From: Armatimonadota bacterium
GTDB taxonomy: Bacteria > Armatimonadota > Fervidibacteria > Fervidibacterales > Thermosaccharophagaceae
NCBI GenBank assembly: GCA_025062195.1
Contig: JANXAS010000013.1
Span: 3,501-67,500 of the forward strand
DNA: 64,000 nt
Direction: 5' to 3'
This document shows, piece by piece, positions 5,476 to 62,052 of this stretch. The translations under genes were made by a program, and so were the position numbers. Under the pieces are notes generated by a model. The model was not told the origin of the DNA. It made no database searches and worked only from the letters and a program-made list of their open reading frames with translations. Each line of letters begins with the position of its first letter. Position 1 is the stretch's first letter.

Positions 5476-5882
5476 TTTCCCCACCTCAATCAACTTGAGA
5501 TGCACAAAGTTTCGCCAACACTGCATCCACCCATGCAGTGTGAATCCCCTTATGAACAATGGCACACTCAATTGCTCTCGTTATGTGCCGAGCATTGTGG
5601 CTCACTTGGGAGTTTGCCTTCCCTACAGCCCTCCTCAAACAACCTTTTGATAAGGGTGATTGAGTTAAAGGAAAGCTGCAGATAAGCCGTGAAACCAAAT
5701 AAGTTAGATGTTACCTTAATTTTTGAGGATGACATTGCCGTGCGTTGTTTACGACTGCCTGCGAGGGCGACAAAATGCACTCTCAGGTTGACCAAATTGA
5801 TGAACGCTATCCTCGCTCTCAAATGATTGCGAACGGCTATTGCTCTAACCTTCTCGCCATGCATGGGTTAGGGGTGGTTAGC

Positions 5883-16397: not shown

Positions 16398-16494
16398 TTG
16401 TGATGCCACCGGCGAGAGAAAGAGTTTTAAACCAGCTCTTTTCGGGCTTGATCTCAGGGGCAAACGCAACGCAGCTTTATGCCGTTTTCAAACT

Positions 16495-16578
16495 GAGGTA
16501 GCATCCAACCTATATAGCGACATGGCTTGCTCACAATGTCATTAAGCTCTGCAACCAGAAATGGCGACGCTGCATGGT
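16495..16578 (+). repeat. Degenerate copy of the REP-like unit and 3' part of repeat A
   Basis: aggtagcatccaacctatatagcgacatggcttg...gtcattaa...aaatggcgacgctgcatgg aligns with 58010-58061 and 58738-58812. Confidence 0.6.
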
Positions 16579-16663
16579 GAGAGTTTTTGTCGTTCCGTGA
16601 TTCAAGGGGGCATATCTCTAAAAGCTTTCACCGTGAGGATGCCCGTGCTACTTTAATTTGGCA

Positions 16664-33569: not shown

Positions 33570-33642
33570 TGCCCCTGCCCGGACTCGAACCGGGATCTAC
33601 GGCTTAGGAGGCCGCCGCTCTGTCCTCTTGAGCTACAGGGGC
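33570..33642 (-). tRNA. tRNA-Arg(CCT); CCA not encoded
   Basis: GCCCCTGTAGCTCAAGAGGACAGAGCGGCGGC-CT-CCT-AA-GCCGT...GGTTCGAGTCC cloverleaf. Confidence 0.95.
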
Positions 33643-33671
33643 AGCAATCTATGGCTTTACCAATACGCCAG

Positions 33672-33745
33672 TGCGCCCGGCGCGACTCGAACGCGCGACC
33701 TCTGGCTCCGGAGGCCAGCGCTCTGTCCGGCTGAGCTACGGGCGC
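33672..33745 (-). tRNA. tRNA-Arg(CCG); CCA not encoded
   Basis: GCGCCCGTAGCTCAGCCGGACAGAGCG CTGGC-CT-CCG-GA-GCCAG...GTTCGAGTC cloverleaf. Confidence 0.95.
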
Positions 33746-33793
33746 ATTTCAATCCACGCCACCCACAATTCATTCGGAAGGCTAAAAACACTT

Positions 33794-33871
33794 TGGCGCG
33801 CCCGGAGGGATTCGAACCCCCGACCCCGGGATCCGTAGTCCCGTGCTCTATTCCAGCTGAGCTACGGGCGC
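33794..33871 (-). tRNA. tRNA-Arg(ACG)
   Basis: GCGCCCGTAGCTCAGCTGGAATAGAGCA CGGGA-CT-ACG-GA-TCCCG...GGTTCGAATCC...GCCA. Confidence 0.97.
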
Positions 33872-33894
33872 GCCCTTTCGCAACCCAAATTGTA

Positions 33895-33989
33895 TGGCGG
33901 AGGGACCGGGATTCGAACCCGGGAGGGAGGCTTCATAACCCCCCTACGGCTTAGCAGGCCGCCGCCTTAGCCACTCGGCGCATCCCTCC
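33895..33989 (-). tRNA. tRNA-Ser(GCT)
   Basis: GGAGGGA...GCGGC-CT-GCT-AA-GCCGT, long variable arm, GGTTCGAATCC, ends TCCCTCCGCCA. Confidence 0.95.
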
Positions 33990-47934: not shown

Positions 47935-48047
47935 TCACATCAACCCATCGTCACAGCAAGTATTGATTAAAGAACTCACAACTTCATCCATAGAGGCAAC
48001 ATCGTTTTTGGATGAATGAAGTTGCTCAAAATGGCTTGAGCGGTTTA

Positions 48048-48201
48048 AACCATTTCAACAAATTAAAGCGGCATGATTGCCGTTTGGATCATGAAACGAT
48101 AAAAACTAACAAAACGCAGCCACTTTTTGGCGGAGAGCCCAAACGGCCGCCTCGGACAAGCACGAACGCTACATGGGTTTAGGTGTCACCTTAATCTTTG
48201 A
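48048..48201 (-). repeat. Intergenic repeat modules: REP-like unit plus a ~45 bp module shared with 54577-54620
   Basis: Reverse complement aaggtgacacctaaacccatgtagcgttcg resembles 58010-58037; reverse complement catgatccaaacggcaatcatgccgctttaatt resembles cgtgattcaaacggcagtcgcgtcgctttaatt. Confidence 0.6.
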
Positions 48202-48248
48202 AAATGGCATTATTAGTCACCCATCCAATCAACTGCATCCACCCTTAA

Positions 48249-54159: not shown

Positions 54160-54350
54160 AGCCGAACGCTTTAAAAATGGCTCACACTCATGCGTGGTTA
54201 TGCCATATAGGACTGGGCAGTTGGCATTGTTTCTCAGAGGCATGCGACAGTCTGTCTGAAAATATTTACAAATGCCCTTCACTACAAATTGCAAATTTAG
54301 CGGATGGCTTGTCCGTCGGTTTAATACATAACCAAATTTTGAAAAGGGCT

Positions 54351-54567
54351 GGCGGACTATGCCTCAAACACGCCTACACTCCTCGCTCAAAAGTTCGTTT
54401 GTGCCAAGTTACTCACGCCACTGGCTTTAACCATCAATTGATGGTGAACAAATTAGAGCCGAATTTATTCGGCTGAGAAATTTCTGACCTATGCAGCATC
54501 GCGGCTTACCCGCGACAGCCGTTTAAATTTCTTCGCCCAAAATTGGCGATGCTACATTGAGTGACTT
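54351..54567 (+). repeat. Repeat A, copy 1 (~215 bp, non-coding)
   Basis: Colinear with 58607-58820 (ggactatgcctcaa...gccactggc...ctgacctatg.agcatc...aaatttctt.gccc.aaatt.gcga.gcta.attgag). Confidence 0.85.
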
Positions 54568-54628
54568 ACGCCGCCTCGTGATTCAAACGGCAGTCGCGTC
54601 GCTTTAATTCCATGAAATGGTATTAAAG

Positions 54629-54950
54629 CCTCACGCTCTTTATCACAAACTTTGTTAGTTAGGTTCGTAGTTAGCCACGAAGCGAAAGCGTAGTGGCGTT
54701 AAGTTGGTGCAATGTGCAATGTTATCATTTTACTTGCCTCGCACCTTACACTCACTTTGACGGCACTTCGCTTTGCCCTGTGCCTCACTGTGAACCAACG
54801 AACATTTGAGTAAAGAGCGAAACCTGAAATAGAATTGAATGCCAACAGCGTGTGAATGCACTCCACCTCACTTTCGTTTTGCGGCTAACTACAAACTTGA
54901 GTGAGCGAACGCCGCTTCGCTACCGCTTTGTGGCTGATTATGAACTTATC
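54629..54950. repeat. Repeat B, copy 1, with long imperfect inverted repeats (REPIN/MITE-like)
   Basis: 54629-54819 is colinear with 58097-58276; the left arm aggttcgtagttagccacgaagcgaaagcgtagtggcgtt recurs inverted at ~54860-54898 and ~54908-54947. Confidence 0.8.
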
Positions 54951-54967
54951 AACCTAATCAACCGCAG

Positions 54968-55552
54968 TTAAAGCGTTGGTGCCGCAAGTGAACGCAAGTC
55001 ATGCGTCACTTTGAACAAGTTCTCGTGTTGGAAGTGCGCCGATAGCCCAATTGAGCGTCCCAGCTCTTCAAGGTCTTGCTTGAGTTCCCTTGGGTCAAGC
55101 TCCGGTGGGACGGATAACTCAAGCACCATCATGAAACCGCCATTGCTTGTCCTTCCGTAAAGGTCGGTGATATTAATTCCCCTTGATGCGAGATATGATG
55201 CCATGCGATATATTATCCCGGGTTGGTCCTTACCATACACGGTGAGTATGAAGCGATCGTAGTTTTCGGGTGTTGCACTCAACGGCTCATCGGCATAACG
55301 CAATGTCGCCATCACATGCAACTCCCCGGGCATACCGGTTGATCCAACTGCCCTCACAACCTCTTCAAGCGGTGGCTGTGGTTCTGGAAATGTAGCACAA
55401 ACTATGATTGTGAAGTAGCCCCTCACCACCGTTTGGCTTAACTCCTCTATGTTGCCGCCAAGCTCATAGATCGCCTTACCAATGCCGGCTACTATTCCGG
55501 GTCTGTCACGAGCCATCACACTGACAATGTATTCGGGAAGCTGCGCCGACAT
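54968..55552 (-). CDS. Tandem ACT-domain protein (GcvR/UPF0237-like)
   Basis: VMARDRPGIV and VYGKDQPGII...NITDL; C-terminal FQHENLF. Confidence 0.85.
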   Translation of the reverse strand: MSAQLPEYIVSVMARDRPGIVAGIGKAIYELGGNIEELSQTVVRGYFTIIVCATFPEPQPPLEEVVRAVGSTGMPGELHVMATLRYADEPLSATPENYDRFILTVYGKDQPGIIYRMASYLASRGINITDLYGRTSNGGFMMVLELSVPPELDPRELKQDLEELGRSIGLSAHFQHENLFKVTHDLRSLAAPTL

Positions 55553-57952: not shown

Positions 57953-58009
57953 GCTTCTCTCACCTCGCACAAGTCATTGCTCATTACCTAAATTTTCACA
58001 CCATATTGT

Positions 58010-58379
58010 AAGGTGACATCCAACCTCTGTAGCGTCGTAGCTTTCCCACGACGGTCATTAACATCGTCGCTCCAGGGAATGATATCACAGTTTTATCCTC
58101 ACGCTCCTACCACAAACTTTGTTAGTGTTAGCCACGAAGCGAAAGCGTAGTTGCGTTAAGTTGGTGCAATGTGCAATGTTATCATTTTACTTGCTTCGCA
58201 CCTTACACTCACTTTGACGGCACCATGCTTTGCTCCGTGCCTTATTGTGGACCAACAAACTTTTGAGTAAATAGCGTTGTTCTCAAACTTCCCTCATGCA
58301 CATGAGACGACACTACAGTTTTATCCTAAAACTGTTCTCGGTTCTCAAACTTCCACCGTCCACAAGTGACGACGCTACA
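58010..58379. repeat. REPIN-like composite: a GTAG-REP on +, repeat B copy 2, then two GTAG-REPs on -
   Basis: GTAG-CGTCGT-N9-ACGACG at 58029; inverted REPs with GTAG at 58313-58316 and 58375-58378; direct repeat gttctcaaacttcc at 58279 and 58341. Confidence 0.75.
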
Positions 58380-58606
58380 AATACTGTTTCAAGGCAGCGT
58401 GTATATCATGCTCGTAAATACTATCGGTGAAGCGCCGATGCAATTTGCATCATAAGAGGGTTGAATTTCCACACACTCTGAATGATACCTCAATTTTTGA
58501 AAATGGTATTGCACCACACTCGGTTTTGACAGTGCCTCGCTTTACGTTGTTGCAAAAGTTTGGGCAGGGCGCCAATGCTACTGCATTACCATTTGCAAAA
58601 ATAACA

Positions 58607-58820
58607 GGTGGACTATGCCTCAACTGTGTTTACACTCCCTGTTCAAGATTTTGTTTGCGCTAAGTTATCCGTGCCACTGGCATTAGCCATCGGTTGATGA
58701 CGAAAAAATAGAGCAAAATTTGCTCGGTTAAGAAATTCTGACCTATGTAGCATCATGGCTTATCCACGACGGTCATTAAATTTCTTAGCCCCAAATTAGC
58801 GACGCTAAATTGAGGGACTC
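58607..58820 (+). repeat. Repeat A, copy 2
   Basis: Colinear with 54351-54567. Confidence 0.85.
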
Positions 58821-58880
58821 CCACTCTTTCGTGACTATAAATTGAGCCTGCCAGAGCCATTTTGCAAACTTTTTGGAATT

Positions 58881-60200: not shown

Positions 60201-61682
60201 CTACCCCATAATGACTACTATTTCGTCGCCAATTCCGCCGGCTTTTTCTATGGCGAATTTTGCATCCTTTGGTATTGGTTGATGTGGTCCACCTTTGACA
60301 TAAATAGGTGGCTCAATATCCAAACGAACACCTTGCTCAATCAATTTTGCCCGTAAAGCTTGGACATCAACTTGCCTTGGCGTGACATTTTTCCGAATTG
60401 AAATTGCAGCAGCAGTCCCTGCAGCTTGCCCCATCGTCATACATGTGAAAATCAACCTTGCACCAGATTGAGCCTCAAATGTTGAAGAGAGACACCTTCC
60501 AGCTACAAGCAAATTCTCAACATTCAATGGCACTAAGCATCGGTATGGAATTTCATAGTATTCGCCGGGTCTAAGATAAGCATCATACATCCCTGCTTTT
60601 TCCTCGCTTGGGAAACAAACTGCTGGTTCTTTTGGCTCTTTCAAGTGAGTATGCTTGATATGAGGCAAATCAGTCGGATTGTGGATGTCAAAGCCATGAG
60701 TATCACGGGCAATAGCATCCTCAAACTTCCTTGCGAGCACAATATCCTCAGCAGTTAGCACATATTCCCCAATAATTCTCCTTGAATCACGGATGCCAAG
60801 CATTGGCGCACTGTAGACAAGCCGGCAATTCTCAAATCCTGGCACATATTTCCTGTAAAACTCCACAATTTCCCTCATCTGCCTCCTTTGCTCTATAGCA
60901 ATTCTTGTTAAATCCTCAGCATCTGTAGTGCGACAATTTCGGCTATGAGCTGAACAAACATAGACCTCGCAGCCTTCAGGTTGCCTTCCGGGCAACGGTC
61001 CAAGGTAGCCAGTTTCCACAAGTTTTGAAAGAACTCCTTCCTCCACAGCTTTGAAGGCAATTTCCTGCAGATAGTTATACCAGCGCTTGACCGAGCTTTG
61101 GAACTTATGCCAATCAACATTTGCGAGGACGAAATCCAAAGAAACAGCCTGATTATAGCCACCTTTTTCATCCCAGCCGACTTCAAAAGGTGCTCCAGCA
61201 TATGCTGCTACATCGCCATCCCCGGAGCAATCTACAACTCTTTCAGCTAAAATAGCCTGTATTCCTGATTTGTTATGAACGATGACACCTTTAATAACAC
61301 CACCTTCAACTATGCTGTCAATCGCCATCGTGCCGTAGAGAATGCGAGCGCCAGATTCCATGACCATCTCCTCAAGAATATGCTTTGTTTTTTCCGGATC
61401 GGCAATTCGTCTTTGCGGGCTAACCGCACCCACCTCCGTTAACCTTTCAAGCAATTCATTCCCAATTCCTTCCGGATAACCAGCCAAATAGCACACATAG
61501 CCGAGCGTTACCAATCCGCCAAGCGCAAATTGTCCCTCAATAAGCAGTGTATTCATTCCATTTCTTGCCGAAGAAATTGCCGCAGCTACACCGGCAACGC
61601 CACCACCAACGACCAAAACATCAACCTTCTCTTTGACTTTCACTTCTTTGGACCATTTAAGCGAATTTTTCACCAAAATCAC
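60201..61682 (-). CDS. FAD-dependent oxidoreductase
   Basis: DVLVVGGGVAG, DCSGDGD, GIRDSRRI.GEY.L, YEIPYRCL and VAGRC. Confidence 0.88.
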   Translation of the reverse strand: MILVKNSLKWSKEVKVKEKVDVLVVGGGVAGVAAAISSARNGMNTLLIEGQFALGGLVTLGYVCYLAGYPEGIGNELLERLTEVGAVSPQRRIADPEKTKHILEEMVMESGARILYGTMAIDSIVEGGVIKGVIVHNKSGIQAILAERVVDCSGDGDVAAYAGAPFEVGWDEKGGYNQAVSLDFVLANVDWHKFQSSVKRWYNYLQEIAFKAVEEGVLSKLVETGYLGPLPGRQPEGCEVYVCSAHSRNCRTTDAEDLTRIAIEQRRQMREIVEFYRKYVPGFENCRLVYSAPMLGIRDSRRIIGEYVLTAEDIVLARKFEDAIARDTHGFDIHNPTDLPHIKHTHLKEPKEPAVCFPSEEKAGMYDAYLRPGEYYEIPYRCLVPLNVENLLVAGRCLSSTFEAQSGARLIFTCMTMGQAAGTAAAISIRKNVTPRQVDVQALRAKLIEQGVRLDIEPPIYVKGGPHQPIPKDAKFAIEKAGGIGDEIVVIMG

Positions 61683-61757: not shown

Positions 61758-62052
61758 CCACTTTGTGCCACAAAATTCAGTTCAACTTTGTTGGACTCAA
61801 CTTGAACACAATATGAGCACACTGTAGAATTTTATGGCACAAAACTGTTCAAATTCGCAATAGCTGAATTATCACGAAAAAAGTTCAAACTTCTTGCTTC
61901 TTGCACCACAAAATTCGGTTCAATTTTGCTGGGCTTAACCTTGCGCAATAAAACTCTGTTCAATTTTACCGCGCTTAACTTGAACACAACAAGAATGCAT
62001 TGTAAAACTTTAGAGCACAAAATTGCTCAAACATGCAATGGCTGAGTTATCC
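61758..62052. repeat. Degenerate tandem duplication (~115-150 bp units)
   Basis: ccacaaaattc.gttcaa.tttg.tgg.ct.aac...ttgaacacaa...gcacaaaa.tg.tcaaa...gcaat.gctga.ttatc occurs twice; the second unit carries an extra internal duplicated segment. Confidence 0.7.

Follow-up and report, generated by a model that had tools for sequence, protein, structure and literature searches.

A decayed family of GTAG-tagged doublet repeats with a MITE-like shell between the genes of an Armatimonadota bacterium

A doublet repeat inside a longer palindrome

Profile searches of the genome of an Armatimonadota bacterium (G000; 3.42 Mb in 170 contigs, 97% complete) reveal a large family of intergenic repeats, here called family A, in which an inverted doublet of GTAG-tagged palindromes lies within a longer palindrome bounded by ~30-bp terminal inverted repeats (TIRs). 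Every copy in this genome is decayed, homologous doublets surround a RAYT gene in a genome of the sister genus, and one insertion shows a duplication of the trinucleotide TAA. On balance, family A is probably a MITE shell that captured a REPIN doublet and is now a dead, hybrid, non-autonomous population. The repeat was studied starting from a window of 64,000 nucleotides, the whole stretch of DNA analysed, which corresponds to G000:C44:3501-67500; positions without a contig name are window positions, i.e. the position on contig C44 minus 3500.

The course of events that we favour can be outlined as follows. The doublet core is of the kind on which RAYT (HUH/Y1) nucleases act, and in the sister genus a RAYT gene still lies amid intact copies of it. 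A MITE shell of 162-174 nt, made up of ~30-bp TIRs and a further hairpin (hairpin 3), would have picked up the doublet. The hybrid would then have multiplied as one unit, served in trans by a DDE-type transposase, with insertion at TAA or TTA (TWA) and duplication of the target, in a burst that probably followed the split from the three sampled congeners. The enzyme or enzymes would since have been lost, and the copies may have been decaying neutrally between genes.

Copy number and placement in the genome

With nhmmer, a profile built from a five-copy seed finds 71 matches at E<1e-3 in the whole G000 assembly. When the hits were extended by 120-200 nt and re-aligned, conservation was seen to continue well past the unit delimited in the first-pass annotation of the window, and a full-length profile of 209 positions gives 169 matches at E<=0.01 across the assembly. 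Seven of these lie in the window, for which that annotation had described a dispersed GTAG repeat of at least seven copies. Measured against a gene map that is crude (ORFs of at least 100 aa, covering 84.5% of G000), 144 of the 169 hits overlap ORFs by 10% or less, where random placement gives 18.7±3.9; the copies had been called intergenic from the window sequence, and this holds genome-wide. Family A is a real, dispersed and intergenic family, far above chance.

Among 142 classifiable copies, 47 lie between convergent, 77 between tandem and 18 between divergent genes, while G000 as a whole has 320 convergent, 1666 tandem and 315 divergent spacers (2301 in total), i.e. convergent-gene spacers are enriched for family A (47/142 copies vs 320/2301 spacers). 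This enrichment speaks for a signal under host selection, in RNA or in DNA (a terminator, for example, a site bound by a protein or an element that stabilises mRNA), a reading that we nevertheless consider very improbable in view of the evidence described below.

The copies in the window differ in completeness. A full-length winged copy with TAA at both flanks is found at 48036-48220 on the minus strand (nhmmer model positions 13-202, E 6e-35), and a winged copy without the outer right end at 16470-16659 on the plus strand (model 14-178, E 5e-30). Two plus-strand copies lack the left wing and consist of the doublet, hairpin 3 and the right wing, at 54480-54630 (model 47-198, E 2.8e-35), or part of the right wing, at 58736-58877 (model 49-184, E 1.7e-19). 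The partial copy at 5663-5741 on the minus strand keeps the left wing and hairpin 1 (model 17-95, E 5.4e-9) and is the one that had been listed as a flank motif alone near 5704. The plus-strand copies previously placed near 16495, 54484 and 58738, and the minus-strand copy near 48150, are likewise family members (seed-profile nhmmer E 3e-10, 1e-11, 4e-12 and 8e-9, respectively). The remaining winged copy, at 57993-58519, is interrupted and is described separately.

Anatomy of the element

The element is uniform in size, 162-174 nt, and contains no ORF. It begins with a left wing of ~30 nt, followed by ATGTAG, hairpin 1 (8-bp stem, 5-nt loop) and a 13-nt A/T-rich spacer; then come hairpin 2, CTACAT, ~15 nt, hairpin 3 (7-bp stem) and a right wing of ~30 nt, which repeats the left wing in inverted orientation and with it forms the TIRs. 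Read on the minus strand, hairpin 2 is itself a GTAG unit, and its outer stem (CGTCG) and loop are the same as those of hairpin 1. As the two hairpins mirror each other, the core consists of two GTAG-tagged palindromes in inverted orientation and has the architecture of a REPIN. The unit first noticed in the window, at 58010-58061, reads exactly as it was described, but it is merely the left inner part of the element of 162-174 nt. The tetranucleotide at the 5' foot of the hairpin is GTAG in 45 and GCAG in 32 of 131 copies, and its right mirror is CTAC in 41 of 123.

Wings in opposite orientation occur at a characteristic distance, with nearest plus/minus pairs clustering at 162-174 nt (9 of 34 pairs). 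Over the 27 paired positions of the wing inverted repeat 66.6% of the pairs are Watson-Crick, compared with 25-33% after sliding one partner along the other. When natural full copies are folded, each forms a single long hairpin, and the junctions and hairpin 3 are constant among winged copies. With regard to module content, 32 hits are complete, 22 have the left wing and the doublet, 18 lack the left wing only, and 22 are matched over the doublet only. There are 13 clear doublets in G000 that have unrelated flanks and are thus naked (wingless), indicating that some of the spread needed no shell.

An interrupted copy, repeat B and the C-module

Families A, B and C are nested together in two intergenic clusters of the window, at 54160-54968 and 57971-58880. 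In the second of these, the left part of a winged copy (57993-58091, plus strand; model 18-125, E 4e-16; equal to C44 61493-61591) has a shortened left wing, GTAG with hairpin 1 (58029-58056), the spacer and a degenerate hairpin 2 at ~58062-58090. The right wing that closes the copy is at 58479-58519 (a minus-strand nhmmer match to model 13-53, E 0.0067; repeat family D17). Between the two parts are found repeat B, at 58102-58276, and, within 58283-58385, two extra half-units of the hairpin-2 type (~58283-58325 and ~58340-58385), the second of which falls within an nhmmer hit at 58347-58513 (plus strand; model 91-195, E 0.0097). The half-units look like local duplications. Taken as a whole, 57993-58519 is one winged copy broken by the insertion of repeat B and by local duplications, the history of which is partly readable.

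At this locus the first-pass annotation had proposed a REPIN-like mobile composite, 58029-58378, that carries repeat B as cargo. GTAG units of opposite orientation do bracket repeat B, and the minus-strand copies at 58293-58317 and 58356-58379 on which the proposal drew are indeed inverted GTAG units, of the hairpin-2 half-unit type. However, they are not the doublet partners of hairpin 1, because the canonical hairpin 2 sits 13 nt from hairpin 1, and here a degenerate hairpin 2 can be seen ahead of repeat B, at ~58062-58090. The arrangement occurs once: no second copy is found in G000, and BLAST depth over 58290-58480 is 1-3, which means that the composite did not multiply. Repeat B is moreover a TIR element of 356 copies with an 8-bp duplication of its own. 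What had been read as a composite results from a single nested insertion, that of another MITE (repeat B), and is not a mobile unit; the reading as a REPIN-like mobile composite is hardly tenable.

Repeat B is a separate MITE of ~175-190 nt with ~25-bp inverted ends, and at 356 genome-wide nhmmer matches in G000 (E<1e-5) it is more numerous than family A. The nested copy at 58102-58276 (plus strand) is 91% identical to 54670-54819, within the other nhmmer-detected copy in the window (54636-54819, plus strand), the flanks of which match at 6 of 8 bases. Another winged copy of family A is also interrupted by repeat B, at C93:17626-17806, where the flanks agree at 7 of 8 bases (8-bp duplication). 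The 37-nt GTAG-containing core of repeat B stands alone, 89-95% identical, in the congener G002 and in G004 and G006, and in G002 it occurs as a tandem array with a period of 50 nt (L054:3040-3250).

The C-module is a third dispersed repeat, of ~100-140 nt with two small palindromes, for which 111 nhmmer hits are found. Its window copies are at 54340-54481 (plus strand; the query of the C-module search and direct repeat D3) and at 58603-58736 (plus strand; nhmmer E 2.6e-17). Both are directly joined to the left-wingless family A copies that follow them. Such joins are found in these two window copies only, which suggests an old local duplication of the composite between the two intergenic clusters. 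Just upstream of the first C-module, at 54300-54350, a hairpin-1-like fragment is followed directly by a wing-like stretch, and this is probably a deleted family A copy.

Decay and stem pairing

All family A copies in G000 are decayed, and the population is probably dead. The 31 near-full copies have a mean pairwise identity of 67% (range 56-80%) and are 78.5% identical to the consensus, with a ts/tv of 2.25. When a doublet is counted as intact if each of its stems retains 7 or more of the 8 pairs and both GTAG and CTAC are present, none is intact among 63 that align without gaps. Watson-Crick pairs make up 56-59% of stem cells, and the mismatches include 11-18% G-T and 13-18% A-C; the similar frequencies of these two kinds indicate that neither strand is favoured as RNA.

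Covariation of the stem had been claimed from the window copies. As a control, the 3' partners were shuffled within columns 1000 times. Hairpin 1 has 610 Watson-Crick cells, compared with 597±12 after shuffling (a value reached by 145 of 1000 shuffles), and hairpin 3 has 340 compared with 343 (727 of 1000); for the pairing of GTAG with CTAC the figures are 390 and 385 (270 of 1000). The result for hairpin 2 is marginal, at 587 cells against 566±11 (26 of 1000). Double changes in the stems are at the level expected from shuffling. The claim is thus not upheld for the family as a whole, and the example on which it was based (54498 vs 58035) amounts to a single compensated pair, confined to a single copy. 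Between lineages, the master copies do differ by compensated pairs, the G000 consensus having inner stems of TGG/CCA and CCC/GGG where those of G008 are GGGG/CCCC and TCC/GGA. Such differences would fit a hairpin requirement in whichever copies were replicating.

These results bear directly on a host-selected signal. RNAalifold finds virtually no consensus structure in 20 full copies (4 pairs, -0.38 kcal/mol), compensatory changes do not go beyond the shuffles, and G-T mismatches equal A-C mismatches. The hairpins of the window copies are degraded; folded as DNA, they are matched by between 13 and 85 of 200 shuffles. Rfam at the gathering score has no match to the repeat, returning four tRNAs only in the search, to which a relaxed threshold of E<=1 adds one chance miRNA hit. 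Together with absence of the family from all three congeners, these observations outweigh the excess of copies between convergent genes. Four tRNA genes are clustered on the minus strand at 33570-33989.

RAYT genes and family A in related genomes

The single RAYT of G000 is located at C97:22119-22478 on the minus strand (152 aa; L001 1384-1842). It scores 88 bits against NCBIfam REP_Tyr_transpos (NF047646; cut-off 80) and has a sub-threshold hit to Pfam Y1_Tnp, and an HUH motif as well as a Y-x3-NPV motif can be recognised in it. On both sides it is flanked by an inverted doublet that belongs to another sequence family, 10 of whose 13 genomic hits are on C97; the locus is a low-copy REPtron of its own. 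For wider comparison we used R1, a sequence-only covariance model built from 20 full copies of family A, which was searched against 30 relatives. Beside the C97 RAYT, R1 finds no family A copy, the best match (7.7 bits, E 0.042) being ~1 kb away. No cognate RAYT for family A was found in G000, an assembly (97% complete, 170 contigs) in which a gene may have remained unassembled.

Among the relatives, R1 has no hits in the three congeners (G001-G003; 2.4-2.7 Mb, 96-98% complete), in the two genomes of genus g3 or in seven genomes of other families. In the sister genus g2 it has hits in 11 of 18 genomes, with at least 90 in G013, at least 63 in G007, at least 56 in G004, at least 46 in G017 and at least 26 in G008. 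The matches span the doublet only in most g2 genomes; G016 and G017 also have winged copies.

The first-pass annotation had proposed a search for an HUH nuclease flanked by the same repeat, in the genome itself or in its relatives. In G000 the sole RAYT carries a different repeat, as described above, and the expected association is found in G008. The RAYT on contig C41 of that genome (174 aa; NF047646 122 bits, cut-off 80) has doublets homologous to family A on either side, at least 13 in all (E<=0.003), six of them upstream, three directly downstream and four past a small insert. These doublets have no wings. Their stems are perfect, with folding energies of about -21 kcal/mol and z-scores of -4.1 and -5.6, values equalled by none of 200 shuffles. 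Between the doublet arrays downstream of the RAYT are two small ORFs (L046 2230-2730), the layout of which resembles a toxin-antitoxin pair.

The G008 RAYT and the C97 protein share 28% identity, and G000 has no closer homologue of the G008 enzyme. In the 24 genomes of the order in our collection its nearest homologue is 38% identical, and the nearest homologues outside the order, from WOR-3 and Chloroflexi MAGs, are 45-50% identical. A RAYT flanked by family A is found in 1 of the 24 genomes of the order; no family A was seen beside the other RAYT loci examined, neither at eight loci nor at 16 loci of homologues from outside the order. Many intact-looking doublets are present in G007, G013 and G004, and no close homologue of the G008 RAYT was found in these three genomes. 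The RAYT of G004 (198 aa; L047, G004:C11:95208-98615) is accompanied by a third GTAG-tagged doublet family, in which the GTAG ends point towards one another with 7 nt between them. RAYT loci lie within arrays of repeats, at which short-read assemblies tend to break, and the RAYT of G017 is situated at the edge of a contig.

REPIN-RAYT systems in this order thus comprise at least three versions, represented by G008, G004 and G000. Family A belongs to the G008 version, which is an orphan in G000. The original description of the window repeat as a REP/REPIN system is supported with regard to the inverted GTAG doublet and the RAYT link, the latter in G008; it does not extend to a cognate RAYT in G000, and the unit that was amplified there looks more like a MITE.

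Insertion sites and the unit that multiplied

The wings, linker, hairpins and spacer have diverged to a similar degree (73-82% identity to the consensus). TAA or TTA is present just outside the left end in 29 of 48 copies and outside the right end in 20 of 41, compared with 3.5% for both words in non-ORF DNA. Since TAA and TTA both occur on both sides, they are direct flanks and not an extension of the inverted repeat. The clearest case is the copy at C22:5899, which sits in the middle of a small palindrome of a C-module with TAA on both sides; in the two empty C-module paralogues, on C92 and C132, the palindrome is continuous and TAA (or TGAA) is found a single time. A second empty-site comparison, of C33 with C148, reads GAA/GAG and is ambiguous. 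The two 3-mers that flank a copy agree in 4 of 12 cases, where shuffling gives 3.2, a difference that is not significant because TAA dominates.

The wings also occur apart from the doublet. Of 123 wing hits, 28 are outside family A and enclose other internal sequence, and at C80:51401-51486 there is an element of 86 nt that goes from wing to wing. The equal divergence of the parts, the TWA flanks, the TAA duplication on C22 and the wings with other cargo together indicate that a unit of 162-174 nt was copied whole by a mechanism that recognises its ends.

If the wings were instead an older dispersed palindrome that had served as a repeated landing site for doublets, each winged copy would be a separate insertion. 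Target palindromes of this kind have been described for GTAG-23 of Thermomicrobium roseum (Di Nocera et al. 2013, PMC3733652), and wing-only elements do exist in G000. However, these are few (the 28 hits above) and mostly enclose other sequence, the doublet shows no sign of being the younger part (73-77% identity to the consensus vs 82% for the wings), and the junctions and hairpin 3 are constant. A landing site is for these reasons an improbable origin for the winged copies, and we return to the MITE shell as the unit that multiplied.

No transposase with matching ends was found in G000, nor in G016 and G017. Several candidates were considered and rejected. An autonomous IS might be enclosed by a pair of wings, but the 1.5-kb pair on C1 encloses ORFs that resemble hypA/hypB in their translations, and other pairs enclose unrelated sequence; in G016 a wing-like pair 1.2 kb apart on C222 has no transposase ORF inside. 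Searches of G000 for the DDE families PF01609, PF13359 and PF13358 return fragments or nothing. Fragments of IS701_2 type are present at C84:3-599, C139:13031-13267, C170:44912-45100 and C162:2594-2758; one of them has five stop codons, two are situated at a contig end or close to one, and the inverted ends are unlike those of families A and B. The exact wing pattern has 16 genome-contig and 11 metagenome-contig hits in two public collections, all scattered singles, and none of these is family A according to R1.

It is also conceivable, though rather unlikely, that the whole palindrome of 162-174 nt is a long REPIN that was moved as single-stranded DNA by a lost RAYT, with wings that lengthen the hairpin and TWA as the preferred target. 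IS200/IS605-like chemistry inserts without target duplication, and elements of this type have subterminal hairpins in their ends. In family A the hairpins are central, and TAA is present on both sides of the C22 copy and once in the two empty paralogues; in addition the wings are found with other cargo, and the doublets that adjoin the RAYT in G008 are wingless. These points have to be set against the homology of the core to those same RAYT-flanking doublets, the folding of natural copies as one long hairpin, and the lack of a DDE enzyme with matching ends in G000, in G016 and G017, and in the two public collections. A long REPIN would furthermore have parallels in Anabaena variabilis and Halothiobacillus neapolitanus, where GTAG dimers are described within long palindromes and no DDE enzyme is invoked (PMC3733652). 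On balance we prefer the captured doublet in a MITE shell.

Timing and genomic setting

Genes around both window clusters are syntenic in the congeners, at 75-86% DNA identity. The orthologous spacers in the three congeners are much shorter, 48-112 nt where G000 has 805 nt and 203 nt where it has 951 nt, and at both sites the extra DNA of G000 consists of families A, B and C. Presence or absence at orthologous intergenic sites had been suggested as a check, but the congener spacers do not align, and exact insertion boundaries are unreadable in them. As these spacers have no similarity while the copies within G000 are still 67% alike, the amplification burst most likely postdates the split from the three sampled congeners.

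A lineage-specific protein encoded in the neighbourhood has 78-85% identity to its counterparts in three Candidatus Thermosaccharophagus MAGs and 70-73% to those in Candidatus Fervidibacter MAGs. The region is found in hot-spring metagenome runs. In contigs from three hot-spring DNA runs (two studies; one run may be the source of the assembly) the clusters are unchanged, and no clean empty allele was seen in those contigs; no RNA run was listed as holding the region.

Families A, B and C make up much of the extra intergenic DNA of G000, the genome of which is 3.42 Mb compared with 2.4-2.7 Mb in congeners of similar completeness, and they account for the breakage of the assembly into 170 contigs. 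The distribution invites a broader and more tentative suggestion, namely that capture in a TAA-duplicating MITE may have allowed a REPIN to escape its dependence on RAYT and to reach more than 100 copies without a cognate RAYT. The hybrid, together with repeat B, is patchy in two hot-spring genera of Fervidibacter-like Armatimonadota and absent from the closest congeners, which could point to horizontal spread of non-autonomous elements. We regard this scenario as possible rather than probable.

Relation to known systems

Tourist-type and IS5-family MITEs make target duplications of TAA or TTA. Family A is like them in its size, its ~30-bp TIRs, its TWA flanks, its lack of coding sequence and its many decayed copies. 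Unlike them, it has no identified parent IS, and its interior is a RAYT-type doublet and not a deleted transposase gene. With the exception of a known parent IS, family A has the structure of a MITE.

It also has the structure of GTAG REP doublets, and the combination of repeats with their RAYT that defines a REPtron is found in the relative G008 and not in G000. The GTAG-tagged REP superfamily is described from Proteobacteria, Cyanobacteria, Chloroflexi and the PVC group (Di Nocera et al. 2013, PMC3733652); Armatimonadetes do not appear in the main text of that paper. Family A resembles the superfamily as described there in having GTAG at the foot of the stem, in an 8-bp stem and a 5-nt loop that are within its ranges, in forming dimers, and in enrichment between convergent and tandem genes. 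Dimers within a longer palindrome are also described, for GTAG-15 of Anabaena variabilis; unlike GTAG-15 in that description, the outer palindrome of family A occurs without the dimer as well, and one insertion shows a TAA duplication.

REPIN-RAYT systems are described from Pseudomonas fluorescens and other Proteobacteria (Bertels and Rainey 2011, PMC3116915). The features shared with that description are paired, inverted short palindromes with a short spacer, an intergenic location and, in G008, a single-copy RAYT amid the same repeats. The differences are that G000 has no cognate RAYT, that all of its copies are decayed, that most of them have ~30-bp wings and TWA flanks, and that the lineage is Armatimonadota. 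The first-pass annotation knew of no REP/REPIN system described in this lineage, and our literature searches, in full text, likewise returned no account of REP, RAYT or MITE elements from Armatimonadota/Armatimonadetes. The nesting of several repeat families in intergenic clusters recalls the BIMEs of E. coli and the mosaic intergenic repeat regions of Neisseria (PMC3733652), from which the sequences differ.

Family A is ordinary selfish DNA, and no host function is known or suggested for its clusters. Its interest lies in its occurrence in this lineage, in its being both an orphan and decayed, and in what looks like a fusion between a RAYT substrate and a TIR-TSD shell. GTAG-REP/REPIN-RAYT systems are now extended to Armatimonadota, and G000 provides a natural example of a REPIN population without its enzyme, in which decay is complete. 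If the hybrid reading is true, substrates of HUH and DDE enzymes, whose transposition chemistries are unrelated, can fuse into one amplifying unit, which would bear on the origin and persistence of REPINs.

Elsewhere in the window, at 61760-62051, just upstream of an FAD-oxidoreductase gene (60201-61682, minus strand), there are two to three direct repeats of 39-114 nt that are 74-82% identical.
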